The notes under the pieces: generated by a model
Told to the model about the DNA's origin: nothing
The model's database searches: none
What the model saw: only the letters and a program-made list of their open reading frames with translations
NCBI GenBank assembly: GCA_030390025.1
Contig: JASTWF010000110.1
Location: forward strand, 496,001 to 560,000
DNA length: 64,000 nucleotides
Source: Squalus acanthias
Taxonomy: Eukaryota
Direction of reading: 5' to 3'
Made by a program: the position numbers and the translations under genes
Shown: piece after piece, positions 809-54,624 of the stretch
How the letters are laid out: every line of letters starts with the position of its first letter
Numbering within the stretch: the first letter of the stretch is position 1

Positions 809-1558
809 CCTCTGGAAGCAATGTTACTGTGAGTGTCGGTCAGAGAGAAGTGAATGGGACCGTGAACCAGTCTGTCCTTCTCCCCGTCTCCTACTCCACA
901 CCCACTCCCTAGTCCTCTTTAAAGATAGAGTGGAGTTTAATTCCCACAGACACTCCATTAGTGACATTGACCCGATCAAACTGCTCTCCAGACCCTGACA
1001 GACCCGGTTATACCTGTTCAGATTACCAGGTGTTCGCTCCTTCCCACAGGGGGAGAGTCCACATCTACCCAGAGAATGGATCCTTGTTGCTGCGGGATCT
1101 GCAGCCCAGTGACAGCGGCGTGTATGTGATATCTGTTTACAGTGATGGGGACACAACCAGTAAAGGCAATGTGACGTTAACAGTCTATCCCGGGACAGGT
1201 AGGAATTCACAGGCTGATTATTTAACCCATTTAACCCTCAGTGCCCTTTGCTGATAGAGGAACATTATTTAACTGTTACTGTACTTGTCGCTTCGAAACA
1301 AGCTGAATATTGCCAGCAAATTGATAAAGAATGATTAAAGTCTCTTTTTGAATATAATCGGGTTGTTGTAAATGATCACATTTTTGTTGCAGGCACTGAG
1401 AATCCTACCCCGAGCTGCACAGAGCAAGCGGAGACCACCAGACAACCCCCCGACCACCACCACCCGCTCTCCTGCTCCGTGTGGTCATCTTTGGCGCTGT
1501 CACTGTGCTCGGGGCCTGCCTGTACTTGTGTGTGAGGCGGAGATACCGAGCGAAATGA
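809..1558 (+). pseudogene. IgV activating-type receptor family, copy 1 (pseudogene): V exon 809-1198, stalk/TM exon 1393-1558; leader exon lies upstream of the window
   Basis: Canonical ag/gt splice sites and a 390-nt V exon. In-frame TAG at 910-912 (TAC in most paralogues). Also a +2 frameshift in the CAC repeat of exon 3 (166 nt vs 164). Confidence 0.88.
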
Positions 1559-4637: not shown

Positions 4638-6591
4638 ATGTGCAGGGAAGTAAATCTCTTTAAATTCACCAACATTTACCCTCTCGTCATTTATTTTATT
4701 TCCCTCTCCGGTAAGTTGTTTTCTTTCACTTCCAGTATAAATGTTATTCTATTTCTGAGTTCCCTTTGACTCTGTGTGACTTCTGCTGACTGTGTTTAAT
4801 CAGGGCTGGGGTTCAATCGCTCACTGATCTAAAGTGAATGAAGCTCAGCTCATTCCCGGAGATCTTCAGTCTCATTCAGTCGGGCTCCTGTGAACAGGTA
4901 GATTCCCGCTCACCATCTGCCCTCCAGTTACTGTCAAACACTGTGAGTCACCTGAACCTCTAACTGTAGCTGGGACTTATTAATGAATGAACTGATCTCT
5001 CACAAGTCTTTAATTATTATTTATTAATGTGTCAGATATTCTCGTGTGTATGTTTTATCAAATGTGTAAAATTGGCGGATTCGATCAATTGGATTTCTAC
5101 CAAGTCTTTATTTAATGATTATAACATAGAATTACATACAATTTACAGCACAGAATAGGCCATTTGGCCAAACTGATCTAAGCCGGGGTTTATGCTTCTC
5201 GCGAGCCTGCCCACAATTTATTTACTTCACCTCATCCTAACAACATATCCTTCTATTCCTTTCTCCCTCATGTACTGATCCAGCTTCCCCTTAAATGAAT
5301 CCAGACTATTCACCTCAACTACTCCTTGTGGTAGCTCGTTCCGCATTCTCACCACTCTCTGGGTAAAAATGTTTCTGCTGAATTATTTTTTGGATTTATT
5401 AGAGACTATTTCATTACTAGCGTCTCAAACACTGTTATTATGATCGGGAACACATTGTCTGAAAGGCCGGTTGAAGCAGATTCAACAGTAAGCTTCAAAG
5501 GGGAATTGAATATAGACTTGAAAAGGAAAATTTGCTGGGCTATTGGGAAAGAGCGCGGGAGGGGGACTGATTGGATCGCTCATTCAAAGAGCTAGTACAC
5601 GCACGATGGGCCGAATGGCCTCCTTCCGTGCTGTATGAATCTCTGATTGTATAATTTCGTGCTCTCTGACTGGGCATTTTGTTTATTCTATCAAATTTAT
5701 TCTTTGTTGATGCTGCAGGTATTTTGTGATTTCAAACTCCTGGGATGCTTTATAACCAGAATTCTGAGTAAAGCCCTTTCTGAGGAATTCTGAGCTGTTT
5801 TTTTCCTTTCTGAAGCTGATTTATTGTTTGTATTTTGTTGCAGCCTCTGGAAGTAATGTTACTGTGAGCGTCGGTCAGAGAGAAGTGAAGGGGACCGTGA
5901 ACCAGTCTGTCCTTCTCCCCGTCTCCTACTCCACACCCACTCCCTACTCCACTTTAAAGATAGAATGGTTTTTATTCCCCGGAGACACTCCATTAGTGAC
6001 ACTGACCCGATCAAACTGCTCTCCAGACCCTGACAGACCCGGTTATACCTGTTCGGATTACCAGGTGTTCGCTCCTTCCCACAGGGGGAGAGTCCACATC
6101 TACCCAGAGAATGGATCCTTGTTGCTGCGGGATCTGGAGCCCAGTGACAGCGGCGTGTATGTGATATCTGTTTACAGTGATGGGGACACAACCAGGAAAG
6201 GCAATGTGACGTTAACAGTCTATCCCGGGACAGGTAGGAATTCACAGCCTGATTATTTAACCCATTTAACCCTCAGTGCCCTTTGCTGATAGAGGAACAT
6301 TATTTAACTGTTACTGTACTTGTCGCTTCGAAACAAGCTGAATATTGCCAGCAAATTGATAAAGAATGATTAAAGTCTCCTTTTGAATCTAATCGGTTTG
6401 TTGTAAATGATCACATTTTTGTTGCAGGCACTGAGAATCCTACCCCGAGCTGCACAGAGCAAGCGGAGACCACCAGACAACCCCCCGACCACCCACCCGC
6501 TCTCCTGCTCCGTGTGGTCATCTTTGGCGCTGTCACTGTGCTCGGGGCCTGCCTGTACTTGTGTGTGAGGCGGAGATACCGAGCGAAATGA
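4638..6591 (+). CDS. Single-IgV type I membrane receptor, copy 2, intact, 208 aa; exons 4638-4710, 5844-6233, 6428-6591
   Basis: Leader MCREVNLFKFTNIYPLVIYFISLS|gtaag. V exon ASGSNVTV...VLLPVSY...KIEWFLF...NCSPDPDRPGYTC...RVHIYPENGSLLLRDLEPSDSGVYVISV...NVTLTVYPGT. Exon 3 GTENPTPSCTEQAETTRQPPDHPPALLLRVVIFGAVTVLGACLYLCVRRRYRAK*. Both introns phase 1; 73+390+164=627 nt. Confidence 0.9.
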
Positions 6592-9988: not shown

Positions 9989-11941
9989 ATGTGCAGGGAA
10001 ATAAATCTCTTTAAATTCACCAACATTTTCCCTCTCATCGGTTATTTTATCACCCTCTCCGGTAAGTTGTTTTCTTTCACTTCCAGTATAAATGTAATTC
10101 TATTTCTGAGTTCCCTTTGACTCTGGGTGACTTCTGCTGACTGTGTTTAATCGGGGCTGGGTTTCAATCGCTCAATGATCTAAAGTGAATGAAGCTCAGC
10201 TCATTCCCGGAGATCTTCAGTCTCATTCAGTCGGGCTCCTGTGAACAGGTAGATTCCCGCTCACCATCTGCCCTCCAGTGACTGTCCCACACTGTGAGTC
10301 ACCTGAACCTCTAACTGTAGCTGGGACTTATTAATGAATGAACTGATCTCTCACAAGTCTTTAATTATTATTTATTAACGTGTCAGATATTCTCGTGTGT
10401 ATGTTTTATCAAATGTGTAAAATTGGCGGATTCGATCAATTGGATTTCTACCAAGTCATTATTTAATGATTATAACATAGAATTACATACAATTTACAGC
10501 ACAGAATAGGCCATTTGGCCAAACTTGTCTAAGCCGGGGTTTATGCTTCTCGCGAGCCTGCCCACAATTTATTTACTTCACCTCATCCTAACAACATATC
10601 CTTCTATTCCTTTCTCCCTCATGTACTGATCCAGCTTCCCCTTAAATGAATCCAGACTATTCACCTCAACTACTCCTTGTGGTAGCTCGTTCCGCATTCT
10701 CACCACTCTCTGGGTAAAAATGTTTCTGCTGAATTATTTTTTGGATTTATTAGAGACTATTTCATTACTAGCGTCTCAAACACTGTTATTATGATCGGGA
10801 ACACATTGTCTGAAAGGCCGGTTGAAGCAGATTCAACAGTAAGCTTCAAAGGGGAATTGAATATAGACTTGAAAAGGAAAATTTGCTGGGCTATTGGGAA
10901 AGAGCGCGGGAGGGGGACTGATTGGATCGCTCATTCAAAGAGCTAGTACACGCACGATGGGCCGAATGGCCTCCTTCCGTGCTGTATGAATCTCTGATTG
11001 TATAATTTCGTGCTCTCTGACTGGGCATTTTGTTTATTCTATCAAATTTATTCTTTGTTGATGCTGCAGGTATTTTGTGATTTCAAACTCCTGGGATGCT
11101 TTATAACCAGACTCCTGAGTAAAGCCCTTTCTGAGGAATTCTGAGCTGTTTTTTTCCTTTCTGAAGCTGATTTATTGTTTTAATTTGTTGCAGCCTCTGG
11201 AAGTAATGTTACTGTGAGCGTCGGTCAGAGAGAAGTGAATGGGACCGTGAACCAGTCTGTCCTTCTCCCCGTCTCCTACTCCACACCCACTCCCTGCTCC
11301 ACTTTAAAGATAGAATGGTTTTTATTCCCCGGAGACACTCCATTAGTGACACTGACCCGATCAAACTGCTCTCCAGACCCTGACAGACCCGGTTATAACT
11401 GTTCAGATTACCAGGTGTTCGCTCCTTCCCACAGGGGGAGAGTCCACATCTACCCAGAGAATGGATCCTTGTTGCTGCGGGATCTGGAGCCCAGTGACAG
11501 CGGCGTGTATGTGATATCTGTTTACAGTGATGGGGACACAACCAGGGAAGGGAATGTGACGTTAACAGTCTATCCCGGGACAGGTAGGAATTCACAGCCT
11601 GATTATTTAACCCATTTAACCCTCAGTGCCCTTTGCTGATAGAGGAACATTATTTAACTGTTACTGTACTTGTCGCTTCGAAACAAGCTGAATATTGCCA
11701 GCAAATTGATAAAGAATGATTAAAGTCTCCTTTTGAATATAATCGGTTTGTTGTCAATTATCACATTTTTGTTGCAGGCACTGAGAATCGTACCCCGAGC
11801 TGCACAGAGCAAGCGGAGACCACCAGACAACCCCACGACCACCCACCCGCTCTCCTGCTCCGTGTGCTCATCTTTGGCGCTGTCACTGTGCTCGGGGCCT
11901 GCCTGTACTTGTGTGTGAGGCGGAGATACCGAGCGAAATGA
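9989..11941 (+). CDS. Single-IgV receptor, copy 3, intact, 208 aa; exons 9989-10061, 11194-11583, 11778-11941
   Basis: Same exon lengths and splice sites; open frame throughout; TM ALLLRVLIFGAVTVLGACLYLCV; extra Cys in the BC loop (TPCST). Confidence 0.9.
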
Positions 11942-14040: not shown

Positions 14041-15988
14041 ATGTGCAGGGAAATAAATCTCTTTAAATTCACCAACATTTTCCCTCTCATCAATTATTTA
14101 ATCACCCTCTCCGGTAAGTTGTTTTCTTTCACTTCCAGTATAAATGTAATTCTATTTCTGAGTTCCCCCTGACTCTGTGTGACTTCTGCTGACTGTGTTT
14201 AATCGGGGCTGGGGTTCAATCGCTCACTGATCTAAAGTGAATGAAGCTCAGCTTATTCCCGGAGATCTTCAGTCTCATTCAATCGGGCTCCTGTGAACAG
14301 GTAGATTCCCGCTCACCATCTGCCCTCCAGTTACTGTCCCACACTGTGAGTTACCTGAACCTCTAACTGTAGCTGGGACTTATTAATGAATGAAACGATC
14401 TCCCACACGTCTTTAATTATTATTTATTAACGTGTCAGATATTCTCGTGTGTATGTTTTATCAAATGTGTAAAATTTGCGGATTGGATCAATTGATTTCT
14501 ACCAAGTCTTTATTTAATGATTATAACATAGAATTACATACAATGTACAGCACAGAATAGGCCATTTGGCCAAACTGGTCTAAGCCGGGTTTTATGCTTC
14601 TCGCGAGCCTGCCCACAATCTATTTACTTCACCTCACCCGAACAACATATCCTTCTATTTCTTTCTCCCTCATGTACTTATCCAGCTTCCCCTTAAATGC
14701 ATCTATACTATTCACCTCAACTACTCCTTGTGGTAGCTCGGTCCACATTCTCACCACTCTCTGGGTAAAAATGCTTCACCTGAATTCTTTTTTTGGATTT
14801 AATAGTGACTGTTTCATTACTAGCGTCTCAAATGCTGTTATTATGGTCTGGAACACATTGTCTGGAAGGGTGGTGGAAGCAGTTTCAACAGTGAGCTTCA
14901 AAGGGGAATAGACTTGGAAAGGAACATTTGCAGGGCTATTGGGAAAGAGCGGGGGAGTGGGACTGATTGGATCGCTCATTCACAGAGCTAGTACACGCAC
15001 GATGGGCCGAATGGCCTTCTTCTGTGCTGTATGAATCTCTGATTGTATAATTTCGTGCTCTCTGACTGGTCCTTTTGTTTATTCTGTCAAATTTATTCTT
15101 TGTTGATGCTGCAGGTATTTTGTAATTTGAAACTCCTGGGATGCTTTATAACCAGAATTCTGAGTAAAGCCCTTTCTGAGGAATTCTAAGCTGTTTTTTT
15201 TCCTTTCTGAAGCTGATTTATTGTTTTTATTTTGTTGCAGCCTCTGGAAGCCGTGTTACTGTGAGCGTCGGTCAGACAGAAGTGAAGGGGACCGTGAACC
15301 AGTCTGTCCTTCTCCCCGTCTCCTACTCCACACACACTCCCTACTCCACTTTAAAGATAGAGTGGACTTTATTCCCCGGAAATACTTCATTAGTGAGACT
15401 GACCCGAGCAAACTGCTCTCCAGACCCTGACAGACCCGGTTATAACTGTTCAGATTACCAGCTTGACGGTCCATCCCACACGGGGCGAGTCCACATCTAC
15501 CCAGAGAATGGATCCTTGTTGCTGCGGGATCTGGAGCCCAGTGACAGCGGCGTGTATGTGATATCTGTTTACAGTGATGGGGACACAACCAGGAAAGGCA
15601 ATGTGACGTTAACAGTCTATCCCGGGGCAGGTAGGAATTCACAGTCTGATTATTTAACCCATTTAACCCTCAGTGCCCTTTGCTGATAGAGGAACATTAT
15701 TTAACTGTTACTGTACTTGTCGCTTCGAAACAAGCTGAATATTGCCAGCAAATTGATAAAGAATGATTAAAGTCTCTTTTTGAATCTAATCGGGTTGTTG
15801 TAAATGATCACATTCTTGTTGCAGACACTGAGAATCCTATCCCGAGCTGCACAGTGCAAGCGGAGACCACCAGACAACCCCCCGACCACCCACCCGCTCT
15901 CCTGCTCCGTGTGGTCATCTTTGGCGCTGTCAGTGTGCTCGGGGCCTGCCTGTACTTGTGTGTGAGGCGGAGATACCGAGCGAAATGA
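14041..15988 (+). CDS. Single-IgV receptor, copy 4, intact, 208 aa; exons 14041-14113, 15241-15630, 15825-15988
   Basis: Kozak-like cACCATG, canonical splice sites, open frame; divergent face residues (EWTLFPGNTSLVRL, DYQLDGPSHTGRV). Confidence 0.9.
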
Positions 15989-18707: not shown

Positions 18708-21184
18708 TCATTTCGCTCGGTATCTCCGCCTCACACACAAGTACAGGCAGGCCCCGAGCACAGTGACAGCGCCAAAGATGACCACACGGAGCAGGAGAGC
18801 GGGTGGGTGGTCGGGGGGTTGTCTGGTGGTCTCCGCTTGCTTTGTGCAGCTCGGGGTAGGATTCTCAGAGTCTGCAACAAGCTTCTGATCATTTACAACA
18901 ACCCGATTAGATTCAAAAGGAGACTTTAATCATTCTTTATCAATTTGCTGGCAATATTCAGCTTGTTTTGAAGCGACAAGTACAGTAACAGTTAAATAAT
19001 GTTCCTCTATCAGCCAAGGACACTGAGGGTTAAATGGGTTAAATAATCAGACTGTGAATTCCTACCTGTCCCGGAATAGACTGTTAACGTCACATTGCCT
19101 TTAGTGGTTGAGTCCCCAGCACTGTAAACAGTTATCACATACACGCCGCTGTCACTGGGCTGCAGATCCCGCAGAAACAAGGATCCATTCTCTGGGTAGA
19201 TGTGGACTCTCCCCCTGTGGGAAGGAGTGAACCCCGAGTAATCTGAACAGTTATAACCGGGTCTGTCAGGGTCTGGAGAGCAGTTTGATCGGGTCAGTGT
19301 CACGAATGGAGTGTCTCCGGGGAATAAAAACCACCTTATATTTAAAGTGGAGACGGGGAGAAGGACAGACTGGTTCATGGTCCCCTTCACTTCTCTCTGA
19401 CCGACGCTCACAGTAACACGGCTTCCAGAGGCTGCAACAAAATAAAAACAATAAATCAGCTTCAGAAAGGAATAAAACAGCTTAGATTTCCTCAGAAAGG
19501 GTTTTACTCAGAAGTCTGGTTATAAAGCATCCCAGGAGTTTGAAATCACAAAATACCTGCAGCATCAACAAAGAATAAATTTGATAGAATAAACATAACG
19601 ACCAGTCAGAGAGCTTGAAATTATACAATCAGAGATTCATACAGCACAGAAGGAGGCCATTCGGCCAATCGTGCGTGTACTAGCTCTTTGAAAGAACTAC
19701 CCCATAAGTGCTAATTCCACGCCACTTCACAATAGCCCTCCAAATTTTCCTTTCCAAGTCTATAGTCAATTCCCCTTTGAAGTTACTGTTGAAACTCCTT
19801 CCACCGCCCTTTCAGACAATGTGTTCCAGACCATAATAACAGCATTTGAGACATTAGTAATGAAATAGTCACTAATAAATCCAAAAAATAATTCAGGAGA
19901 AACATTTTTACCCAGAGAGTGGTGAGAATGTGGAACGAGCTACCACAAGGAGTAGTTGAGGTGATTAGTCTGGATGCATTTAAGGGGAAGCTGGATCAGT
20001 ACATGAGGGAGAAAGGAATAGAAGGATATGTTGTTAGGGTGAGGTGAAGTAAATAGATTGTGGGCAGGCTCGCGAGGAACATAAAACCCGGCTTAGACCA
20101 GTTTGGCCAAATGGCCTATTCTGTGCTGTAAATTGTATGTCATTCTATGTTATAATCATTAAATAATGACTTGGTAGAAATCAATTGATCCAATCCGCCA
20201 ATTTTACACAATTGATAAAACATACACACGAGAATATCTGACACATTAATAAATAAATAATAATTAATGACTTGTGGGAGATCGGTTCTTTCATTAATAA
20301 GTCCCAGTCTAGAGTTAGAGGTTCAGGTAACTCACAGTGTGGGACAGTAACTGGAGGGCAGATGGTGAGCGGGAATTTACCTGTTCACAGGAGCCTGAAT
20401 GAATGAGACTGAAGATCTCAGGGAATGAGTTGAGCTTCATTCACTTTAGATCATGATGCGGAGAATACTTCAGCAGTCAAGGACATTCAGCCTCGGATCT
20501 GCGGGTTAGCGTTCTCCAAGGCGGCCTTCGAGACACACAACAATGCAAAATCATCGAGCAGAAACTGATAACCAAGTTCCGCACCCATGAGGATGGCCTC
20601 AATAGGGATATCGGGTTCATGTGATGATATAGAACGTGACTCGACATCGTTGTCTGTCTTTCCAGTTTTTTTTAAAAAACACAAAAAAAACAAACCAAAA
20701 AAACACAAAAAATAAAAGTTAAAAGCTCAACTGTAGACAGCAGGATTTGACACGTTGGACCCCCAGTGTCCCATCTCATTATCTTGGCTGTGCTCTGGTG
20801 TGTCTTTGATGTAAGGCCTCCCTGAAAGATTGTATCTCTGCAGACAAATTGATTTTTGTGTTTATATACAGTGTAATATTGTAGATTCCTTCATTGTACC
20901 TGTACCTGACGAAGGGGCAACAGCTCCGAAAGCTTGTAATTTAAAAAAAATCTGTTGGACTATAACCTGGTATTGTGCGACTTCTCACTTTAGATCAGTG
21001 AGCGATTGAACCCCAGCCCCGATTAAACACAGTCAGCAGAAGTCACACAGAGTCAGGGGGAACTCAGAAATAGAATTACATTTATACTGGAAGTGAAAGA
21101 AAACAACTTACCGGAGAGGAAAATAAAATAACTGATGAGAGGGAAATTGTTGGTGAATTTAAAGAGATTTATTTCCCTGCACAT
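18708..21184 (-). CDS. Single-IgV receptor, copy 5, intact, 200 aa with an 8-aa BC-loop deletion; exons 21184-21112, 19431-19066, 18871-18708
   Basis: Canonical splice sites; V exon 366 nt (in-frame loss of YSTPTPYS); TM Arg retained; Penelope fragment in intron 1. Confidence 0.85.
20454..20984 (+). mobile_element. 5'-truncated Penelope-like element (GIY-YIG endonuclease C-terminus, 3' UTR, hammerhead-bearing terminus) in intron 1 of copy 5
   Basis: Encodes EYFSSQGHSASDLRVSVLQGGLRDTQQCKIIEQKLITKFRTHEDGLNRDIGFM*. Flanked by the direct repeat tcactttagatca (20441-20453, 20985-20997). Confidence 0.82.
20900..20940 (+). ncRNA. Minimal type I hammerhead ribozyme motif of a Penelope-like element
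   Basis: UAC-CUGACGA-A-GGGGC aaca GCUCC-GAAAGCU-U-GUA: core boxes, helix II, palindromic helix III and UAC/GUA helix I. Confidence 0.65.
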
Positions 21185-22390: not shown

Positions 22391-23949
22391 GTAAAATATC
22401 ACTTAGAAAATATCAACGGGATTAGACAAAGTCAACATGGATTTATGAAACGAAAATCGTGTTGGACAAACCTACTGGAGTATTTTGAGGATGTTACTGG
22501 TAGAATAGATAAGGGCGAACCAGTTGCTGTGGTGTATTTGGATTTTCAGAAGGCCTTTGATAAAGTCCCACATAAGAGTTTAGTGTGAAAAATTAAAGCA
22601 CATGGGATTGGTTGTAATATACTGGCATGGATTGAAAATTGGTTAACAGGCAGGAAACAGAGAGTAGGAATAAATGGGTCTTTTTCGGGGTGGCAGGTGG
22701 TGACTAGTGGGGTACCGCAGGGATCAGTGCTTGGGCCCCAGCTATTCACAGTATATATCAATGATTTGGATGAGGGAACCAAATGTAATATTTCCAAGTT
22801 TGCTGACAACACGAAACTAGGTGGGATTGTGAGTTGTGAGGAGGATGCAAAGAGGCTTCAAGGCGATTTAGACAAGTTGAGTGAGTGGGCAAATACAGGG
22901 CAGATGCAGTATAACGTGGATAAATGTGAAGTTATCCACTTCGGTAAGAAAAACAGAAAGGCAGAGTATTATTTAAATGGTGATATATTGGGAAATGTTG
23001 ATGTACAAAGGGACCTGGGTGTCCTTGTACACCATTCACTGAAAGCAAACATGCAAGTGCAGCAAGCAGTTAGGAAAGGCAAATGGCATGTTGGCCTTCA
23101 TTGCAAGAGGATTTGAGTACAGGAGCAAGGATGTCTTACTACAGTTATGATGCGGAGATGCCGGTGTTGGACTGGGGTGGACAAAATTGAGAGGTCGCAC
23201 AACACCAGGTTATAGTCCAACAGTTTTATTTGAAATCACAAGCTTTCGGAGCTATCACTCACCTGAGGAAGGAGTGATAGCTCCGAAAGCTTGTGATTTC
23301 AAATAAAACTGTTGGACTATAACCTGGTGTTGTGCGACCTCTCAATTTTACTACAGTTATACATGGCCTTGGTGAGACCACACCTGGAGTACTGTGTGCA
23401 GTTTTGATCTCCTTACCTAAGAAAGGATATACTTGCCATGGAGGGAGTGCAGCGAAGGTTCACCAGACTGATTCCTGGGATGGCAGGACTGTTGTATGAG
23501 GAGAGACTAGGTCGACTAGGCCTGTATTCACTAGAGTTTAGAAGAATGAGAGGGAAGCTCATTGTAACGTGTAAAATTCTGACAGTGCTAGACAGACTGG
23601 ATGCCGGGAGGATGTTTCCCCTTTTTGGGGGGTCTAGAACGAGGGGTCACAGTCTCAGGATACGGGGTAGGACATTTAGGACTGAGATGAGGAGAAATTT
23701 CTTCACTCAGAGGGTGGTGAACCTGTGGAAATTCTCTACCACAGACGGCTGTGGAGGCCAAGTCACTAAATTTATTTAAGAAGGAGATAGATAGATTTCT
23801 ACACACAAAAGGCATCAAAGGGTATGGGGAGAGAGCGGGAATATGTTATTGAGATAGAGGATCAGCCATGATCATATTGAATGGCGGAGCAGGCTCGAAG
23901 GGCCGAAAAACCTACTGCTGCTCCTATTTTTCTATATGTCTATGTTTCT
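22391..23949 (+). mobile_element. CR1 (HER1-like) LINE, 5'-truncated, decayed RT
   Basis: QHGFMK, YLDFQKAFDKVPH, GVPQGSVLGP, KFADNTKL, LEFRRMRG motifs; (atgtttct)-like tail. Confidence 0.92.
23149..23347. mobile_element. Palindromic Penelope-terminus insertion nested in CR1: perfect 78-bp arms (23183-23260 / 23272-23349) with a hammerhead core at the centre
   Basis: TSD ttactacagttat at 23136-23148 and 23348-23360; arms match the termini of the elements at 20.9 kb and 55.5 kb. Confidence 0.85.
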
Positions 23950-25397: not shown

Positions 25398-27346
25398 TCA
25401 TTTCGCTCGGTATCTCCGCCTCACACACAAGTACAGGCAAGCCCCGAGCACAGTGACAGCGCCAAAGATGACCACACGGAGCAGGAGAGCGGGTGGGTGG
25501 TCGGGGGGTCTCTGGTGGTCTCCGCTCGCTCTGTGCAGCTCGGGGTAGGATTCTCAGTGTCTGCAACAAGAATGTGATCATTTACAACAACCCGATTACA
25601 TTCAAAAGGAGACTGTTAATCATTCTTTATCAATTTGTTGGCAATATTCAGCTTGTTTCGAAGCGACAAGTACAGTAATAGTTAAATAATGTTCCTCTAA
25701 CAGAAAGAGCACTGAGAGTTAAATGGGTTAAATTATCAATCTGTGAATTCCTACCTGTCCCGGGATAGACTGTTAACGTCACATTGCCTTTACTGGTTGT
25801 GTCCCCAGCACTGTAAACAGATATCACATACACGCCGCTGTCACTGGGCTGCAGATCCCGCAGCAACAAGGATCCATTCTCTGGGTAGATGTGGACTCGC
25901 CCCGTGTGGGAAGTAGTGTCCCGCTGGATACTGAACAGTTATAACCGGGTGTGTCAGGGTCTGGAGAGCAGTTTGATCGGGTCAGTGTCACTAATGAAAT
26001 GTCTCCGGGGAATAAAACCCACTCTATCTTTAAAGTGGAGTAGGGAGTGAGTGTGGAGTAGGAGACGGGGAGAAGGACAGACTGGTTCACGGTCCCCTTC
26101 ACTTCTCTCTGACCGACGCTCACAGTAACACGGCTTCCAGAGGCTGCAACAAATTAAAACAATAAATCAATTTCAGAAAGGACAATAAAAAGCTTCGAAT
26201 TCCTTAGAAATTGTTTTACTCAGGAGTCTGGTTATAAAGCAGCCCAGGAGTTTGGTGGAATAAATATAAGGACCAGTCAGAGAGCATGAAATTATACAAT
26301 CAGAGATTCATACATCACAGAAGGAGGCCATTCGGCCCATTGCGCTTGTGCCGGCACTTTGAATGAGTGATCCAATCAGTCCCACTCCCCCACACTTTCC
26401 CAATAGCCCTGCAAATAATTTCCTTTCCAAGTATATATTCAATTCCCCTTTGAAGTTTACTGTTGAATCTGCTTCCACCGCCCATTCAGACAATGTGTTT
26501 CAGACCATAATAACAGTATTTGAGACGTTAGTAAATAAATAGTGAGTAATAAATCCAAAAAAATAGAATTCAGGAGAAACATTTTTACCCAGAGAGTGGT
26601 GAGAATGTGGAACTCACTGTCACAAGGAATAGTTGAGGTGAATAGTATAGATGCATTTAAGGGGAAACTAGAGGGAGAAAAAAGTAGAAGGATATGTTGT
26701 TAGGGTGAGGTGAAGTACATAGATTGTGGGGAGGCTCGCGAGGAGCATAAACACAGGCTAAGACCAGTTTGGCCAAATGGCCTATTCTGTGCTGTAAATT
26801 GTATGTAATTCTATGTCTTAATCATTAAATAAAGACTTGGTAGAAATCAATTGATCCAATCCGCCAATTTTACACATTTGATAAAACATACACGCGAGAA
26901 TATCTGACACATAAATAAGTAAATAATAATTAAAGACTTGTGAGAGGTCAGTTCGTTCATTAATAAGTCCCAGCTACAGTTAGAGGTTCAGGTAACTCAC
27001 AGTGTAAGTCCCAGCTACAGTTAGAGGTTCAGGTAACTCACAGTGTCGAACAGTCACTGGAGGGCAGATGGTGAGCGGGAATCTACCTGTTCACAGGAGC
27101 CCGACTGAATGAGACTGAAGATCTCAGGGAATGAGCTGAGCTTCATTCACTTTAGATCAGTGAGCGATTGAACCCCAGTCCCGATTAAACACAGTCAGCA
27201 GAAGTCACACAGAGTCAAAGGGAACTCAGAAATAGAATCACATTTATACTGGCAGTGAAAGAAAACAACTTACCGGAGAGGGAAATAAAATAATTGATGA
27301 GAGGGAAAATTTTGATGAATTTAAAGAGATTTATTTCCCTGCACAT
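25398..27346 (-). pseudogene. IgV receptor copy 6 (pseudogene); exons 27346-27274, 26143-25755, 25560-25398
   Basis: V exon 389 nt (-1 frameshift near 25930, just after the second Cys); exon 3 163 nt (-1 frameshift in the stalk). Confidence 0.87.
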
Positions 27347-30127: not shown

Positions 30128-31683
30128 CTGTCCCGGGATAGACTGTTAACGTCACATTGCCTTTCCTGGTTGTGTTCCCATCACTGTAAACAGATATCAC
30201 ATACACGCCGCTGTCACTGGGCTGCAGATCCCGCAGCAACAAGGATCCATTCTCTGGGTAGATGTGGACTCTCTCACTGTGGGAAGGAGCGAACCCCCGG
30301 TAATCTGAACAGTTATAACCGGGTCTGTCAGGGTCTGGAGAGCAGTTTGATCGGGTCAGTATCACTAATGGACTGTCTCCGGCGATTAAACCCCAGTCTA
30401 TCTTTAAAATCGAGTAGGGAGTGGGTGTGGAATAGGAGACAGTGAGAAGGACAGACTGGTTCACGGTCCCCTTCACTGCTCTCTGACCGACGCTCACAGT
30501 AACACGGCTTCCAGAGGCTGCAATAAAATAAAAACAATAAATCAGCTTCAGAAAGGAAAAAAAAAACACCTTAGAATTGCTTAGAAAGGGTTTTACTCAG
30601 GAGTCTGGTTACGAAGCATTCGAGGTGTTTGAAATCACAAAATACCTGCAGCATCTACAAAGAACAAAATTATAAAGAATAAACATAACGACGAGTCAGA
30701 GAGCATGAAATTATACAATCAGAGATTGATACAGCATAGAAGGAGGCCATTCGGCCCATTCTGCGTGTACTAGCTCTTTGAAAGATCGATCCAATCTCCC
30801 TCTTTCCCAATAGCCTTTCAAATCTTTCCGTTTGAAGTCTGTATTCAATTCCCCTTTGAAGCTCACTGTTGAAACTGCTTCCATTGCCATTTTAGACAAT
30901 GTGTTCCAGACCATAATAACAGCATTTGAGACGGTAGTAATTAAATAGTCTCTAATAAATACAAAAAAATAGAAATCAGGAGTAACATTTTTACCCAGAG
31001 AGTGGTGAGAAGGTGGAAGGAGCTACCACAAGGAATAGTTGAGGTGAATAGTATAGATGCATTTAAGGGGAAGCTGGATAAATACATGAGGGAGAAAGGA
31101 ATAGAAGGATATGTTGTTCGGGTGAGGTGAAGTAAATAGATTGTGGGCAGGCTCGTGAGGAGCATAAACCCCGGTTTAGACCAGTTTGGTCAAATGGCCT
31201 ATTCTGTGCTGTAAATTCTATGGTAGAGATCAATTGTACAATCCGCCAATTTTACACATTTGATAAAACATACACACGAGAATATCTGACACATTAATAA
31301 ATAATAAATAAAGACTTGTGAGAGATCAGTTCATTCATTAATAAGTCCCAGTTACAGTTAGAGGTTCAGGTAACTCACAGTGTCGGACAGTAACTGGAGG
31401 GCAGATGGTGAGCGGGAATCTACCTGTTCACAGGAGCCCGACTGAATGAGACTGAAGGTCTGAGGGAATGAGCCGAGCTTCATTCACTTTAGATCAGTGA
31501 GCGATTGAACCCCAGCCCCGATTAAACACAGTCAGCAGAAGTCACACAGAGTCAAGGGGAACTCAGAAATAGAATTACATTTATACTAGAAGTGAAAGAA
31601 AACAACTTAACGGAGAGGGAAATAAAATAACTGCTGAGAGGGAAATTGTTGGAGAATTTAAAGAGATTTATTTCCCTGCACAT
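30128..31683 (-). pseudogene. IgV receptor copy 7 (probable pseudogene): leader 31683-31611 with donor GT>TT, open V exon 30517-30128, TM exon deleted
   Basis: Leader is followed by ttaag instead of gtaag. Intron 2 joins directly to the L2 tail at ~29950, so exon 3 is absent. Confidence 0.83.
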
Positions 31684-35602: not shown

Positions 35603-37500
35603 TCATTTCGCTCGGTATCTCCGCCTCACACACAAGTACAGGCAGGTCCCGAGCACAGTGGCAGCGCCAAAGATGACCACACGGAGCAGGGGAGCGGCTG
35701 GTGGGTGTTCGGGGGGTTGTCTGGTGGTCTCCGCTTGCTCTGTGCAGCTCGGGGTAGGATTCTCAGTGCCTGCAACAAGAATGTGATCATTTACAACAAC
35801 CCGATTAGATTCAAAAGGAGACTGTTAATCATTCTTTGTCAATTTGCTGGCAATATTCAATTTGTTTCGAAGCGACAAGTACAGTAACAGTTAAATAATG
35901 ATCCTCTAACAGAAAGAGCACTGAGGGTTAAATGGTTTAAATAATCAGCCTGTGAATTCCTACCTGTCCCGGAATAGACTGCTAACGTAACATTGCCTTT
36001 ACTGGTTGTGTCCCCATCACTGTAAACAGATATCACATACACGCCGCTGTCACTGGGCTGCAGATCCCGCAGCAACAAGGATCCATTCTCTGGGTAGATG
36101 TGGACTCTCCCCCTGTGGGAAGGATTGTCCCGCTGGTAATCTGAACAGGTATAACCGGGTCTGTCAGGGTCTGGAGAGCAGTTTGATCGGGTCAGTATCA
36201 CTAATGGAGTGTCTCCGGGGAATAAAACCCAGTCTATCTTTAAAGTGGAGTAGGGAGTGAGTGTGGAGTAGGAGACGGGGAGAAGGACAAACTGGTTCAC
36301 GGTCCCCTTCACTTCTCTCTGACATCCGATCACAGTAACATTGCTTCCAGAGGCTGCAACAAATTAAAACAATAAATCAGTTTCAGAAAGGACAAAAAAA
36401 AGCTTCGAATTCCTTAGAAAGGGTTTTACTCAGGAGTCTGGTTATAAAGCAGCCCAGGAGTTTGGTGGAATAAATATAAGGACCAGTCAGAGAGCATGAA
36501 ATTATACAATCAGAGATTCATACAGCACAGAAGGAGGCCATTCGGCCCATTGTGCCTGTGCCGGCTCTTTGAATGAGCAATCCAATCAGTCCCACTCCCC
36601 CGCTCTTTCCCAATAGCCCTGCAAATACTTTCCTTTCCAAGTCTATATTCAATTCCCCATTGAAGTTTACTGTTGAATCTGCTTCCACCGCCCTTTCAGA
36701 CAATGTGTTCCAGATCATAATAACAGTATTTGAGACGTTAGTAATTAAATAGTGAGTAATAAATCCAAAAAATAATTCAGGAGAAACATTTTTACCCAGA
36801 GACTGGTGAGAATGTGGAACTCACTGTCACAAGGAGTAGTTGAGGTGAATAGTATAGATGCATTTAAGGGGAAACTAGATAAATACATGAGGGAGAAAAA
36901 AGTAGAAGGATATGTTGTTAGGGTGAGGTGAAGTACATAGATTGTGGGGAGGCTAAGACCAGTTTGGCCAAATGGCATCTTCTGTAATGTAAATTGTATG
37001 TAATTCTATGTCTTAATCATTAAGTAAAGAGTTCATAGAGATCAATTGATCCAATCTGCCAATTTTACACATTTAATAAAACATACACGCGAGAATATCT
37101 GACACATAAATAAAAAAATAATAATTAAAGACTTGTGAGAGATGACTTCATTCATTAATAAGTCCCAGCTACAGTCAGAGGTTCAGGTAACTCACAGTGT
37201 GGGGCAGTAACTGGAGTGCAGATGGTGAGCGGGAATCAACCTGTTCACAGGAGCCCGACTGAATGAGACTGAAGATCTCAGGGAACGAGTTGAGCTTCAT
37301 TCACTTTAGATCAGTGAGCGATTGAACCCCAGCCCCGATTAAAGACAGTCTGCAGAAGTCACACAGAGTCAAGGGGAACTCAGAAATAGAATTACATTTA
37401 TACTGGAAGTGAAAGAAAACAACTTACCGGAGAGGAAAATAAAATAATTGATGAAAGGGAAAATTTTGATGAATTTAAAGAGATTTATTTCCCTGCACAT
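35603..37500 (-). CDS. Single-IgV receptor, copy 8, intact, 209 aa; exons 37500-37428, 36353-35964, 35769-35603
   Basis: Canonical splice sites; exons of 73, 390 and 167 nt; TM APLLRVVIFGAATVLGTCLYLCV, tail RRRYRAK*. Confidence 0.9.
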
Positions 37501-38701: not shown

Positions 38702-41048
38702 TTAATAGAAGTAGCTGCAGAGATAGTGGATGCGTTGGTTGTAATCTACCAAAATTCCCTGGATTCTGGAGAAGTCCCAGCGGATTGGAAAACCGCAAAT
38801 GTAACGCTACTATTCAAGAAAGGAGGGAGGCAGAAAGCAGGAAGCTATAGGCCAGTTAGCATAACATCTGTCATTGGGAAAATACTGGAATCCATTATTA
38901 AGGAGGTAATAGCAGGACATTTAGAAAATCATAAGACAATCAAGCAGAGTCAACATGGTTTTATGAAGGGGAAATAGTGTTTGACAAATTTGCTAGAGTT
39001 CTTTGAGGATGTAACAAACAGGGTGGATAAAGGGGAATCAGTAGATGTAGTGTATTTGGATTTCCAGAAGGCATTCGATAAGGTGCCACATAAAAGGTTA
39101 CTGCACAAGATAAGAGCGCACGGGGTTGGGGGTAATATATTGGCATGGATCGGGGATTGGCTAACTAACAGAAAACAGAGAGTCAGGATAAATGGGTCAT
39201 TTTCCGAGTGGCAATCAGTAACTGGTGGGGTGCCACAGGGATCAGTGCTTGGGCCTCAACTATTTACAATCTATATTTTTTTTTTTATTCGTTCATGGGA
39301 TCTGGGTGTCGCTGGCAAGGCCAGCATTTATTGCCCATCCCTAGTTGCCCTTGAGAAGGTGGTGGTGAGCTGCCTTCTTGAACTGCTGCAGTCCGTGTGG
39401 TGAAGGTACTCCCACAGGGCTGTTAGGTAGGGAGTTCCAGGATTTTGACCCAGCGATGATGAAGGATCGGTGATATATTTCTAAGTCAGGATGGTGTGTG
39501 ACTTGGAGGGGAACTTGGAGGTGGTGGTGTTTCCATGTGCCTGCTGCCCTTGTCCTTCTAGGTGGAAGAGTTCCCGGGTTTGGGAGGTGCTGCCGAAGAA
39601 GCCTTGGCGAGTTGTTGCAGTGCATCTTGTAGAGGGTACCCACTGCAGCCACAGTATGCCGGTGGTGGAGGGAGTGAATGTTTAAGGTGGTGGATGGGGT
39701 GTTAATCAAGCTGGCTGCTATGTCCTGGATGGTGTCGAGCTTCTTGAGTGTTGTTGCAGCTGCACTCATCCAGGCAAGTGGAGAGTATTCCATCACACTC
39801 CTTACTTGTGCCTTGTAGATAGTGGAAAGGCTTTCGGGAGTCAGGAGGTGAGACACTCGCCGCAGAATACCTAGCCTCTGACCTGCTCTTGTTGCCACAG
39901 TATTTATGTGGCTGGTCCAGTTAAGTTTCTGGTCAATGGTGACCCCGAGGATGTTGATGGTGGGGGATTCAGCAATGGTAATGCCGTTGAATGTCATGGG
40001 GAGGTGGTTAGACTCTCGCTTGTTGGAGATAGTCATTGCCTGGCACTTCTGTGGCGTGAATGTTACCTGCCACTTATCAGCCCATACTAATGACTTGGAT
40101 GACGGGACCAAGTGTACTGTAGCCAAATTTGCTGATGATATAAAGATAGCTGGGATAGCAAGTTGTGAGGAGGGCACAACGGGTCTGCAAAGGGATAAAG
40201 ATAGGTTAAGTGATTGGGCAAAAGTTTGGCAGATCTAGTATAATGTAGGAAAATGTGAGATTATTCACTTTGGAAGTAAGAATAAAAAAGCAAATTATTA
40301 TTTAAATGAAGTGAGACTACAAAATGCTGCAGTAAAAAGGGATCTGGGGGTCCCAGTACATGAAACAGAAAACGTTAGCATGCAGGTACAGCAGGTAATT
40401 AGGAAGCCTACTGGAATGTTAGACGTTATTGCAAGGGGAATAGAGTATAAAAGTAGGGAAGGTTTGAAGCAACTTTACAGGGTGCTGGTGAAATCACACC
40501 TGGTCTCCATATTTAAGGAAGGATATACTTGCATTGGAGGCAGTGCAGAGAAGGTTCACTCGGTTGATTCCTGGGATGAAGGTGTTGATGTATGACGAAT
40601 AGTTGAGCAGGTTGAGCCTATACTCATTGGAGTTTAGAAGAATGAGAGGTGATCTTATTGAAACATATAAGATTCTGAGGGGGATTGACCGGGTGGATGC
40701 TGAGAGGATGTTTCCCCTAGTGGGGATATCTAGAGCAAGGGGGCATAGTTTCAGAATAAGGGGTCGTCCATTTAAGATGGAGATGAGAAGGAATTTCTTC
40801 TCTCAGAAGGTCGTGAATCTTTGGAATTCTCTACCCCAGAGAGCTGTGGAGGCGGAGTCATTGAATATATTCATGGCGGAGATTGACAGACATTTGAACT
40901 ACAAGGGAGTCAAGGGGTATGGTGAGAGAGCGGGAAAGTGGTATTGAGGCCAAGATTGGATCAGCCATGATCTTATTGAATGGCAGAGCAGGCTCGAGGG
41001 GCCGATTGGCCTATTCCTGCTCCTGTTTCTTATATTCATATGTTCTTA
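38702..41048 (+). mobile_element. CR1 LINE of a different subfamily, longer 5' extent, same insertion site
   Basis: VPADWKTANVTLLFKKGGRQKAGSYRPVSITS, YLDFQKAFDKVPH, KFADDIKI, LEFRRMRGDLIETYKI; tail atgttctt. Confidence 0.92.
39274..40085 (-). mobile_element. Second LINE family (CR1/L2 group) 3' fragment nested in the CR1
   Basis: WADKWQVTF...ILGVTIDQKLNWTSHI...YKAQVRSVMEYSPLAW; A-rich tail; interrupts the host RT between ...LFTIYI and NDLDDG. Confidence 0.88.
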
Positions 41049-42484: not shown

Positions 42485-42648
42485 TCATTTCGCTCGGTAT
42501 CTCCGCCTCACACACAAGTACAGGCAGGTCCCGAGCACAGTGACAGCGCCAAAGATGACCACACAGAGCAGGAGAGCGGGTGGGTGGTCGGGGAGTTGTC
42601 TGGTGGTCTCCGCTCGCTCTGTGCAGCTCGGGGTAGGATTCTCAGTGT
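42485..42648 (-). pseudogene. Orphan stalk/TM exon (copy 9); acceptor, V exon and leader lost at an inversion breakpoint; TM Arg>Cys
   Basis: 164-nt exon-3 homologue. Its 5' edge joins directly to plus-strand intron-1 sequence (gtgtaaaattgg). CGT>TGT at the TM Arg codon. Confidence 0.85.
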
Positions 42649-43233
42649 AAAATTGGTGGATTGGATCAATTGATTTCTACCAAGTCATTATTTAATGATT
42701 ATAACATAGAATTACATAGAATTTACAGCACAGAATAGGCCATTTGGCCAAACTGGTCTAAGCCGGGGTTTATGCTCCTCACGACCCTGTCCACAATCTA
42801 TTTACTTCACCTCACCCTAACAACATATCCTTCTATTCCTTTCTCCCTCATGTACTTAACTAGTTTCCCCTAAAATGCATCTATACTATTCACCTCAACT
42901 ACTCCTTGTGGTAGCTCGTTCCACATTCTCACCACTCTCTGGGTAAAAATGTTTCTCCTGGATTCTTTTTTTGGATTTATTAGTGACTATTTCATTACTA
43001 GCATCTCAAATGCTGTTATTATGGTCTGGAATGCACTGCCTGAAAGAGTGGTGGAAGCAGTTTCAACAGAAAGCTTCAAAGGGGAATTGAATAAATACTT
43101 CAAACGGAAAGATTTGCAGGGCTATTGGTAAAGAGCGGGGGAGTGGGACTTATAGGGTTGATCTTTCAAAGGGCTAGTACACACACGATGGGCCGAATGG
43201 TTTCCTTCTGTGCTGTATGAATCTCTGATTGTA

Positions 43234-44226
43234 TGAACATACATACGAACATACGAATTAGGAGCCGGAGTAGGCCACTCGGCCCTTCGAGCCTGCTCCG
43301 CCATTCAATAAGATCATGGCTGATCCAATTACTCCACATTCCCGCCTACTCCTGATAACTTTTCACCCTCTTGCTTACCAAGAATCTATCTACCTCTGCT
43401 TTAAAAATATTCAAAGACTCTGCTTTCACCGCCCTCTGAGGAAGAGAGTTCCAAAGACTCACGACCCTCTGTGAGAAAATATTTCTCCTCATCTCTATCT
43501 TAAATGGGCGACCTCTTATTTTTAAACAGTGACCCCTAGTTCTAGATTCTCCCACAAGAAGAAACATCCTCTCCACATCCACCCTGTCCAGACCCCTCAG
43601 GATCTTATATGTTTCAATCAAGTCACCTCTTACTCTTCTAAACTCCAGCGGATACAAGCCTAGCCTGTCCAACCTTTCCTCATAAGACAACCCGCCTATT
43701 CCAGGTATTAGGCTAGTAAACCTTCTCTGAACTGCTTCCAACGCATTTACATCCTTCCTTAAATAAGGAGACCAATACTGTACACAGTACTCCAGATGTG
43801 GTCTCACCAATGCCCTGTATAACTGAAGCATAAACTCCCTACTTTGTTATTCAATTCCCCTCGCAATAAACGATAACATTCTATTAGCTTTCCTAATTAC
43901 TTGCTGTACCTGCATACTAACCTTTTGTGATTCATGCACTAGGACACCCAGATCCCTCTGCATCTCAGAGCTCTGCAATCTCTCACCATTTAGATAATAT
44001 GCTTCTTTTTTATTCTTCCTGCCAAAATGGACAACTTCACATTTTCCCCACATTATACTCCATTTGCCAATTTTTTGCCCATTCACTTAACCTATCCATA
44101 TCCCTTTGTAGCCTCCTTATGTCCTCTTCACAATTTACTTTCCTACCTATCTTTGTGGCATCAGCAAATTTAGCAACCATACCTTCGGTCCCTTCATCCA
44201 AGTAATTTATATAAATTGTAAAAAGT
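43234..44226 (-). mobile_element. CR1 LINE 3' fragment in intron 1 of copy 10
   Basis: LYRALVRPHLEYCVQYW...LEFRRVRGDLIETYKI; tail (cgtatgt)-type repeat. Confidence 0.9.
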
Positions 44227-44426
44227 TCATTGTATAAATTAATGCTGTCTGACTGGTCGTTATATTTATTCTATCAAATGTTTTCTTTGTTGATGCTGCA
44301 GGTATTTCGTGATTTCAAACTCCTGGGCTGCTTTATAAACAGACTCCTGAGTAAAACCCTTTCTGAGGAAATCTAAGCTTTTTTTTGTCCTTTCTGAAGC
44401 TGATTTATTGTTTTATTTTGTTGCAG

Positions 44427-45172
44427 CCTCTGGAAGCCGTGTTACTGTGAGTGTCGGTCAGAGAGAAGTGAAGGGGACCGTGAACCAGTCTGTCCTTCTC
44501 CCCGTCTCCTACTCCACACCCACTCCCTACTCCACTTTAAGGATAGAGTGGGGTTTAATCCCCACAGACACTCCATTAGTGACACTGACCCGATCAAACT
44601 GCTCTCCAGACCCTGACAGACCCGGTTATAACTGTTCGGATTACCGGGGGTTCGCTCCTTCCCACACGGGGAGAGTCCACATCTACCCAGAGAATGGATC
44701 CTTGTTGCTGCGGGATCTGGAGCCCAGTGACAGCGGCGTGTATGTGATATCTGCTTACAGTGCTGGGGCACAACCAGTAAAGGCAATGTGACGTTAACAG
44801 TCTATCCCGGGACAGGTAGGAATTCACAGGCTGATTATTTAAACCATTTAACCCTCAGTGCTCTTTCTGTTAGAGGAACATTATTTAACTGTTACTGTAC
44901 TTGTCGCTTCGAAACAAGCTGAATATTGCAAATTGATAAAGAATGATTAACAGTCTCCTTTTGAATCTAATCGGGCTGATGTAAATGATCAGATTCTTGT
45001 TGCAGGCACTGAGAATCCTACCCCGAGCTGCACAGAGCAAGCGGAGACCACCAGACAACCCCCCGACCACCACCCACCCGCTCTCCTGCTCCGCGTGGTC
45101 CTCTTTGGCGCTGTCAGTGTGCTCGGGGCCTGCCTGTACTTGGGTGTGAGGCGGAGATACCGAGCGAAATGA
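44427..45172 (+). pseudogene. IgV receptor copy 10 (pseudogene inside an inverted segment): V exon 44427-44815, TM exon 45006-45172
   Basis: V exon 389 nt (-1 at ~44769, GCTGGGGCACAA). No in-orientation leader upstream because intron 1 is truncated at ~42645. Confidence 0.86.
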
Positions 45173-46450
45173 CAGCGGGAGAACTCCACCTACACCCGGA
45201 GATCGCGATGTCCAGGGTGGGCAACGGTTGGAGAATTCAATCAATCGGAATTCCTGCTGGACCGGCAATAACTTCCTTACAATGTTTCAACAACAACAAC
45301 AACTTGTGTTTATATAGCGCTTTTAATGTAGTTAAACGTCCCAAGGCGCTTCACAGAAGAGTTATAAAACAAAATTTGACTCCGAGCCACATAAGGAGAT
45401 AAAAGCTTGGTCAAAGAGGTAGGGTTTTACGGAGCGATTTAAAGATGGAGAGAGAGGTAGAGAGGCAGAGAGGTTTAGGGAGGGAATTCCTGAGCTTGGG
45501 GCTTTGGTAGCTGAAGGCACGGCCACCAATGGTGGACTGATTAGAATCTGGGATGCTCAGGAGACCGGAATTAGAGGAATGCAGATATCTCGGGCGGTTG
45601 CCTCAATGACCAGATGACCAGCCGATGGAATCTACTGTATGTTGGCCCTCCCTTTTGTATTATCTATTCTCACCCATTTTAGGAACAGAAAATGCTGGTA
45701 ATAAACAGTTCGTATCTGTAAAGGCAAAGGACAGGTAACTGGAATTCCCATGGGGATTCCCCCAATCCACTCCCATAACTTTGACACAATCCCAGAGAAA
45801 TGGCGTAAGCAATGTTTTGTGCTGTTTCTCCAGGGTTTCTGCCGATCTTGCCCCGAAGTTACGGCAGTAGATCGGGAGAATCTGGCAGGAAAATTCTCCC
45901 CCCAGGGTAACCTTTTGAGTAAAACCCTTCTTGATTTACAAACTGGAACTCCAGTCCCAGCATAACTGTGACGATAGCGCCTCTTGGAATATTTCCGATG
46001 TGAATTCCTTCCCTATGTTCTGCGCACTGCGGTTGTGAGTTGCCCCATCTGACCCTTTCATTATGATTTGCCCGGCCTGAAGTGGGCTTTTTGGGGTATT
46101 TTTTTTGTTATTCCTCCATAGGATGTGGGCATCGTTGGTAAGGCCAGCATTTATTGCCCATCCTGAATTGCCATTCAGAAGATGATGGTGAGCTGCCTCC
46201 TTGAACTGCAGAGGGCAGTTAAGAGTCAACCACATTGCTGTGGGTCTGGAGTCACATATAGGCCAGACTGGGTAAGAATGGCAGATTTCCTTCCCTGAAG
46301 GAACCAGAGGGGTTTTTACAATAATCCGACAGCTTAATGGTCATCATTACTGATACTACCTTTTATAATTCCAGCTTTATAATTATTTAATTAACTGAAT
46401 TTAAATTCCCCAGCTGCCGTGGTGGGATTTGAACTCATGTCTCCAGATCT

Positions 46451-47216
46451 AGGCCCTGTATAACTGTAGTACGACATCCTTGCTCCTGTACTCAAATACT
46501 CTTGCAATGAAGGCCAACATACCATTTGCCTTCCTAACTGTTTGCTGCACCTGCATGTTTGCTTTCAGTGACTGGTGTACAAGGACATCCAGGTCCCTCT
46601 GTACATCAACATTTCCCAATCTATCACCATTTAAATAATACTCTGCCTTTCTGTTTTTCCTACCGAAGTGGATAACTTCATATTTATCCACATTATACTG
46701 CATCTGCCATGTATTTGCCCACTCACTCAACTTGTCTAAATTGCCTTGAAGCCTCTTTGCATCCTCTTCACAACTCACAATCCCACCTAGTTTCGTGTCA
46801 TCAGCAAACTTGGAAATATTACATTTGATTCCCTCATCCAAATCATTGATATATATTGTAAATACATGGGACCCAAGCACTGATCCCTGCGGTACCCCAC
46901 TAGCCACCGCCTGCCACCCCAAAAAAGACCCATTTATTCCTACTCTCTGTTTCCTGTCTGTTAACCAATTTTCAATCCATGCCAGTATATTACCCCCAAT
47001 CCCATGTGCTTCAATTTTGCACACTAACCTCTTATGTGGGACTTTATCCAAGGCCTTTTGAAAATCCAAATACACCACTTCCACTGGTTCTCCCTTATCT
47101 ATTCTACCAGTTACATCCTCAAAAAACTCCATTCGGTTTGTCAAACACGATTTCCCTTTCATAAATCCATGTTGACTTTGTCTAATCCCGTTGATATTTA
47201 CCAAGTGATATTTTAT
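46451..47216 (-). mobile_element. CR1 LINE, third paralogous copy of the 22.4/32.8-kb insertion, 3' part deleted
   Basis: Same 5' junction; the 276-aa ORF contains YLDFQKALDKVPH, GVPQGSVLG, KFADDTKL. Confidence 0.9.
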
Positions 47217-48770: not shown

Positions 48771-48842
48771 CGGAGAGGGTTTAAAATAACTGATGAAACG
48801 CAAAATGTTGGTGAATTTAAAGAGATTTATTTCTCTGCACAT
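48771..48842 (-). pseudogene. Orphan leader exon (probably belonging originally to copy 10), 72 nt, 1-nt deletion
   Basis: ATGTGCAGAGAAATAAATCTC...CCCTCTCCG|gtaag. Its intron breaks at ~48385, almost exactly where the inverted intron-1 piece at 42645 begins. Confidence 0.8.
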
Positions 48843-54560: not shown

Positions 54561-54624
54561 TTAGATGTCTTTCAACTCCACCCCCCCCCCCCCCCCGCTC
54601 ACCCCCTTGGCAAGTTATATCCCA

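Follow-up and report, generated by a model that had tools for sequence, protein, structure and literature searches.

The first 49 kb of the window, by which we mean the whole 64,000-nucleotide stretch of Squalus acanthias DNA that was analysed, is filled by about ten repeats of one three-exon gene, whose product is predicted to be a type I membrane protein with a single IgV domain and a short, motif-less tail. We place at roughly 0.7 the probability that this protein is an activating receptor coupled to an ITAM-bearing dimer of the FcR-γ/CD3-ζ type. The elements on which this reading is built are properties of the sequences themselves, as predicted and aligned here: the gene structure, an arginine in the transmembrane (TM) segment, an empty tail, retention of this arginine in orthologous exons, and siblings with tyrosine motifs elsewhere. 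The cluster gene is likely to represent the activating type in an ancient receptor family, apparently without a name so far, that is paired in sharks and rays and has comparable pairs in birds. A sequence-only reading of the same DNA had proposed this type of coupling and is probably right, on grounds other than its own; it overlooked both the paired nature of the family to which the gene belongs and a survey, judged here from its accessible part, that reports no FcR-γ in shark genomes.

Joining the three predicted exons of copy 2 (Table 1) yields an open frame of 208 codons. The assignment of 6499-6591 to the hydrophobic segment, tail and stop of exon 3, which had been made from the letters alone, is borne out, as is the statement that the tail lacks signalling motifs: its seven residues include one tyrosine and no YxxL/I/V. 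Two contigs of sequencing runs X2 and X3 (from one study, and RNA by guess) align to the IgV exon, with 3 differences in one and 7 in the other, and the alignments end exactly at the predicted donor at 6233 while the records continue beyond it. This is a weak hint that a relative may splice at the donor equivalent to 6233. Among four sequencing runs of guessed type, each compared over a small share, exon 3 is covered in none.

Table 1. Predicted features of copy 2 and of the other gene copies (window coordinates)
Feature	Position	Strand	Description
Copy 1	809..1558	+	broken: stop in IgV exon, exon 3 +2 nt; CGT retained at 1478
Copy 2	4638..4710, 5844..6233, 6428..6591	+	intact; Arg codon CGT 6511-6513
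Copy 2, exon 1	4638..4710	+	73-nt leader, predicted signal peptide; phase-1 GT donor
Copy 2, exon 2	5844..6233	+	one V-set Ig domain (Pfam V-set, E 1.7e-10); 5 N-glycosylation sequons
Copy 2, exon 3	6428..6591	+	Pro/Thr-rich stalk, TM helix, 7-residue tail, stop
Predicted TM helix	6499..6567	+	23 residues by insertion-energy scan; helix in model
TM Arg codon	6511..6513	+	CGT; helix residue 3-5; first cytosolic Arg 19 residues later
Two Cys, inner helix end	6550..6564	+	possible palmitoylation, by inference
Cytosolic tail	6568..6588	+	7 residues, basic; without ITAM/ITIM/ITSM
Copy 3	9989..11941	+	intact; CGT at 11861
Copy 4	14041..15988	+	intact; CGT at 15908
Copy 5	18708..21184	-	frame open, IgV exon with 24-nt in-frame deletion; CGT at 18788
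Copy 6	25398..27346	-	broken: IgV exon -1 nt, exon 3 -1 nt; CGT retained at 25478
Copy 7	30128..31683	-	broken: leader donor is TT, without exon 3 after it
Copy 8	35603..37500	-	intact; CGT at 35683
Copy 9	42485..42647	-	orphan exon 3 without acceptor; Arg codon is TGT (Cys) at 42565
Copy 10	44427..45172	+	broken: IgV exon -1 nt, inversion separates leader; CGC at 45092
Leader exon, frameshifted	48771..48842	-	assigned to copy 10 by inference

Mapping of exons within the window gives open frames and canonical splice sites in copies 2, 3, 4, 5 and 8; in copies 1, 6, 7, 9 and 10 the gene is disrupted, variously by stop codons, shifts of one or two bases, loss of a donor, absence of an exon or an inversion, and assembly errors could account for some of the one-base shifts. 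The 24-nt deletion of copy 5 maps to the B-C loop of the IgV domain (window 19435-19061). The block 42645-48373 is inverted, splitting copy 10 from its leader (48842-48771) and abutting the orphan exon, which suggests that a single inversion of about 42645-48373, with loss of 1.8 kb, broke copies 9 and 10 alike. The orphan exon had been described as promoterless; its homology does begin at 42647 without a splice acceptor, but a promoter-like relic lies at 47213-48373 inside the inverted block, and its former owner was probably copy 9. Among the IgV exons of the intact copies pN/pS is 1.52, a ratio that carries no significance test and is near what neutrality could give. Variable codons make up 14/44 of IgV residues 37-80 and 20/85 of those elsewhere in these exons, too weak a difference, and localised diversification of this region was dropped as a candidate.

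The depth of the arginine in the membrane was assessed by a position-dependent insertion-energy scan, whose scale gives no adaptor specificity. At each of the ten lengths listed, from 17 to 26, the top-scoring TM segment, placed from 6499 onward, takes in the arginine as residue 3-5; the weight of the arginine inside the membrane is 0.99, and a segment that avoids it scores, at best, about 2.5 kcal/mol less favourably. A model of the exon-3 product (7 alignment rows, pLDDT 76.9) similarly has a continuous helix over residues 22-52 that includes Arg28. The prediction thus agrees with the earlier claim of an arginine at the outer helix end. In the accessible part of a study of receptor-adaptor pairing (PMC1440944), Fc-γ partners have their arginine in the N-terminal TM segment (position 3 in FcαRI), every partner with a basic residue has such an N-terminal Arg while the remaining helix is tolerant, and DAP12 partners have a lysine at TM positions 7-12. 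NKp46 and NKp30 combine a TM Arg with CD3-ζ/FcR-γ, according to the portion seen of PMC6514059. The helix of copy 2 has no lysine and its arginine lies at 3-5, outside the DAP12-type range; an arginine in the outer TM segment together with a tail devoid of its own ITAM or ITIM corresponds, by prediction, to the FcR-γ/CD3-ζ type.

The sequence-only reading had leaned on conservation within the window, and this part of its argument fails. It listed the arginine in copies 2, 3, 4, 5, 8 and 10, with a change to cysteine in the orphan exon only; the nine exon-3 copies indeed have seven CGT, one CGC and one TGT codons, the broken copies 1 and 6 (both CGT) having been omitted from its tally. Confinement of the loss to the orphan exon is no sign of selection, as the arginine is kept in 5/5 intact and 3/4 broken copies (Fisher p=0.44). 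Nor is survival of the mutable CpG in this codon meaningful: 0/10 exon-3 CpG sites show a transition in the five intact copies, and the 3' flank, with 3 transitions in 72 copy-sites, implies by simple arithmetic that a neutral CpG would stay intact across five copies with a probability of about 0.8. Across exon 3 as a whole, 41/53 codons are invariant in the five intact copies, 49/53 are identical in at least 8/9 copies, and each copy is 0-5 substitutions away from the majority. Because background conservation is equally high, retention of the arginine and its CpG within the window carries no weight. Copy 10 had been treated as an intact gene with a synonymous CGC, whereas its IgV exon is one nucleotide short and its leader lies frameshifted on the opposite strand; we reject the CGC as evidence of selection, given that the copy is broken, though the change could be older than the break. 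Copy 10 also lacks the second cysteine of the CLYLC motif. What survives of the docking proposal is its fit to the published position rule (PMC1440944, accessible part) and to the relatives of the gene.

Sequence searches collected 270 proteins, of which 200 passed the domain filter; 57 of these, with no TM segment detected (fragments, skipped exons and a few missed helices), were excluded, and the remaining 143 formed 107 non-redundant groups. The taxonomic range of the family is based on named hits, with 116 representatives (P0155-P0270) outside that tally. The closest named relatives of the IgV domain, at 57-80% identity, are all sharks and rays, one partial hit excepted, and no mammalian member is among the named family hits. 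Criteria for the Arg type were fixed after the sequences had been inspected. An ITIM- or ITSM-like tyrosine motif is absent from 22 and present in 3 of the 25 Arg-type relatives, against 61 with and 21 without in the other 82 (p 3e-8, for rows that are related to each other and criteria that are post hoc). Of the 107 relatives, 39 have a charged residue no more than 21 positions from the TM end: Arg in 27, Glu in 7, Lys in 3 and Asp in 2. The stalk and TM region of short-tailed proteins from Hemiscyllium, Chiloscyllium, Scyliorhinus and Leucoraja is 38-60% identical to that of the window gene, whereas in seven tyrosine-motif forms the value is only 20-30%. When three window exons are aligned with four elasmobranch proteins (three sharks and a skate), five columns are invariant and R28 is among them; the four protein rows had been chosen as Arg-type after being seen.

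The long-tailed shark forms carry an LTYSLL-like motif, and those of birds, turtles and a salamander TIYARI/VVYTSI-like motifs. The short-tailed bird forms place their arginine 22-26 residues from the TM end, which is on the predicted boundary or beyond it (in 3/3 tested, the weight inside the membrane is 0.12-0.40), so the TM position rule does not fit the whole family. P0005, P0012, P0013, P0014 and other short-tailed bird proteins have the arginine just before the helix, several cysteines, and a conserved histidine near the inner end, while bird P0024 and P0030 have a second arginine within the helix. Given the arginine at the boundary and the inner histidine, the short-tailed bird forms may have a different working mode. 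P0121, P0122, P0143 and P0155 (duck, chicken and unnamed models) contain 2-7 tandem copies of the domain, which could reflect either genuine multi-domain receptors or the fusion of gene models. Palmitoylation of the CLYLC cysteines, as had been suggested, is possible but generic: both cysteines are absent in 2/4 Arg-type orthologues, and membrane-end cysteines occur in 67/83 tyrosine-motif relatives. If real, the modification would therefore not be special to the Arg type.

To place the two types relative to each other, a tree was built from 81 IgV domains over 122 columns, comprising all TM-bearing unnamed representatives and hand-picked named rows, and including some long branches. Arg and Tyr types are interleaved in it, with 14 label changes, of which 12 are forced by strong branches, compared with 20.6 for shuffled labels. 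Short and long forms of the same species are strongly supported sisters in Chiloscyllium punctatum, Scyliorhinus canicula and seven bird species. In 13/13 hand-picked species pairs, the two members are more alike in IgV (84-98% identity) than they are to any of 24 other rows; the identity is 90-98% in the three shark species and 84-97% in the ten bird species. The stalk and TM region, by comparison, is 91% identical between two Arg-type carpet sharks versus 20-23% across types within species. An IgV domain that groups by species, joined to a stalk and TM region that groups by type, is a hallmark of paired receptors. The same pattern has been ascribed to gene conversion between paired CEACAM genes (PMC5112662, in the part accessible). 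In the relatives, near-identical IgV domains are, on these alignments, found on Arg-type and inhibitory-type genes of the same species, while within the 64-kb window no tyrosine-motif sibling was seen among the matches listed. A second clade (P0094, P0151, P0194, P0195, P0199 and P0249, including stingray and sawfish) has its own Arg-type and Tyr-motif forms. P0199 (Arg) and P0195 (Tyr motif) have almost the same IgV domain, and the arginine of the former aligns with a proline in the latter, suggesting a separate origin of the arginine in this clade.

The IgV domain itself is unusual in having no cysteines on strands B and F; in the predicted model (pLDDT 91.9) a Cys58-Cys69 pair lies on a long C'-C'' hairpin, and both cysteines are invariant in 24/24 rows from sharks to birds. 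The skate forms have an 11-residue insertion with an extra cysteine in the region of this hairpin. In 11 of the 12 relatives scanned V-set is the sole Pfam family that can pass its cut-off, the twelfth reaching I-set as well, and database names of relatives are mostly 'uncharacterized' or an automatic HEPACAM-like. Sequence matches in the PDB are weak (48, best E 2.6e-4) and fold searches with the IgV model return generic V domains only. NKp30 and CEACAM are not among the fold matches listed, from which their exclusion cannot be read. The best fold match is the V domain of amphioxus VCBP3 (Z 16.9, rmsd 2.4 over 124 residues), at 21% identity and only 1.5 Z above the next unrelated V domain; the VCBPs are secreted proteins with a chitin-binding domain. 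A lack of the B-strand cysteine is shared with the V-set domains of CD2/SLAM, HEPACAM and VSTM5, and the bird and turtle long forms resemble CD2/SLAM in their ITSM-like motifs. SLAM and HEPACAM have a C2 domain after the V domain, whereas each window copy has one Ig exon followed by the stalk exon. VSTM5 clusters score 0.93 by features, and exon 3 has no match in a Pfam copy that may predate the VSTM5_C membrane/tail model.

Among receptors with known adaptors, LILRA, GPVI, OSCAR and PIR-A are type I receptors coupled to FcR-γ/CD3-ζ, and LILRA and PIR-A have ITIM siblings. The likeness proposed between such receptors and the window gene is one of function; sequence homology is not claimed. FcαRI and NKp46 resemble it in the arginine of the outer TM segment and a short tail without ITAM, but this class has C2-type Ig domains (for NKp46, see the accessible part of PMC6514059), as opposed to one V-set domain without the B-F disulfide. 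NKp30 (NCR3) has one IgV, a TM Arg and CD3-ζ/FcR-γ coupling (PMC6514059, same portion), the arrangement predicted for the window gene. It is absent from the 48 PDB sequence matches, and the window family, unlike NKp30, has ITIM siblings of near-identical IgV. The IgV domain of NKp30 also has the canonical B-F cysteines, whereas the sole pair in the window gene is C58-C69. The N domains of CEACAMs give weak sequence matches (E 6e-4 and weaker) and have a V-like domain in common with the window gene, and CEACAM1/CEACAM3 and Xenopus ceacam genes form activating/inhibitory pairs homogenised by gene conversion (PMC5112662, in part). Their activating forms, however, use a cytoplasmic ITAM, in contrast to a TM Arg and a motif-less tail. 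The CEACAM locus is recognised by its neighbours LIPE, BCL3 and TOMM40. No intact CEACAM genes remain in fowl (PMC13278318), although full-length members of the window family occur there.

Under the coupling favoured here, the arginine side chain would pair with two aspartates that lie towards the outer end of the adaptor helices. A ligand bound to the IgV domain would cluster the adaptor ITAMs and recruit Syk/ZAP70, activating the leukocyte, while the inhibitory sibling would bind the same ligand and recruit SHP phosphatases; exon exchange may keep the activating and inhibitory IgV domains alike within a species. The adaptor would be CD3-ζ, which is evidenced in a shark, or alternatively FcR-γ, should it be present in sharks. 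Expression of cd247 is reported in bamboo shark T cells in a paper whose main text makes no mention of fcer1 or tyrobp (PMC11372145). FcεRI-γ was not found in shark genomes in a 2014 survey (PMC4016189, accessible part), and our literature search found no later statement on it in sharks. The failure of that survey to find FcR-γ would suit a different acidic partner, be it DAP10, DAP12 or an unknown shark adaptor, as would the arginines by which NKG2D recruits DAP10 and Ly49 recruits rodent DAP12 (PMC1440944, as far as accessible). We consider this quite improbable: according to the same text NKG2D and Ly49 are both type II proteins, while in the type I FcαRI the arginine at position 3 is mismatched with the DAP12 aspartate at position 9, and cd247 exists in sharks (PMC11372145, main text).

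An interfacial anchor appears unlikely, though slightly less so. On this alternative the protein would reach the surface unaided and, without signalling itself, sequester the ligand of its inhibitory sibling, serving as a decoy or an adhesion molecule; residue 3-5 is near enough to the headgroups for an arginine to snorkel, the arginine of the short-tailed bird forms lies at the boundary, and 21 of the 107 relatives show neither an arginine at this geometry nor a tyrosine motif. Yet positive charges usually sit on the cytosolic side of the membrane, and an anchor would not predict a 27:3 preference for Arg over Lys at the same geometry, or an arginine nearly confined to motif-less forms. Known Fc-γ partners, moreover, have their arginine at equal depth (PMC1440944, accessible part). 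It is also conceivable, with a very low probability in our estimate, that the cluster is a recent and mostly decaying expansion in which the arginine is an ancestral inheritance with no present role in the window copies. The five copies broken out of ten would be expected on such a view, and the 0-5 exon-3 substitutions between copies are too few to reveal selection; the five copies with open frames and canonical splice sites speak against it, as does the IgV pN/pS noted above, for what a possibly near-neutral value is worth.

Docking of an ITAM adaptor by a TM arginine is well established and ordinary by itself; the value of the adaptor-coupled reading comes from the family. Tentatively, and with rather less than even confidence, we propose an undescribed paired-receptor locus that predates the split of sharks and bony fish and persists in sharks, rays, a salamander, turtles and birds. 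Its IgV exon would have been repeatedly re-homogenised in each lineage, and the Arg docking site invented more than once; in this shark, a roughly ten-fold activating expansion with diversifying IgV faces might act as a pathogen decoy. The family would be a new case of concerted evolution in ligand-binding exons, which points to a pathogen or stress ligand. It also allows a direct test of whether CD3-ζ or FcR-γ was the Arg-type adaptor of early jawed vertebrates; if sharks truly lack FcR-γ, an innate receptor on CD3-ζ could represent the ancestral state of Arg-type coupling. To our knowledge very few germline activating/inhibitory Ig receptor pairs have been described in cartilaginous fish. 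We found no description of this shark-to-bird receptor family in a literature search at the level of titles and abstract openings, largely outside subscription journals. The family is apparently traceable to the chicken, where it may be tested with existing tools.

Besides the gene copies, the window contains several repetitive elements. A 78-bp minisatellite of about 50 copies with 85% matches occupies 49678-53622, and a 25-bp satellite of at least 274 copies extends from 57131 to 64000 and continues past the window end. Between them lies a foldback element (54623-55510) with nested inverted arms of 167 and 181 nt that are 97-98% complementary around a 171-nt centre. The reading frames between the gene copies, at 22589-23116, 39341-40234, 43346-43846 and 46449-47279, resemble what we take to be LINE reverse-transcriptase fragments.
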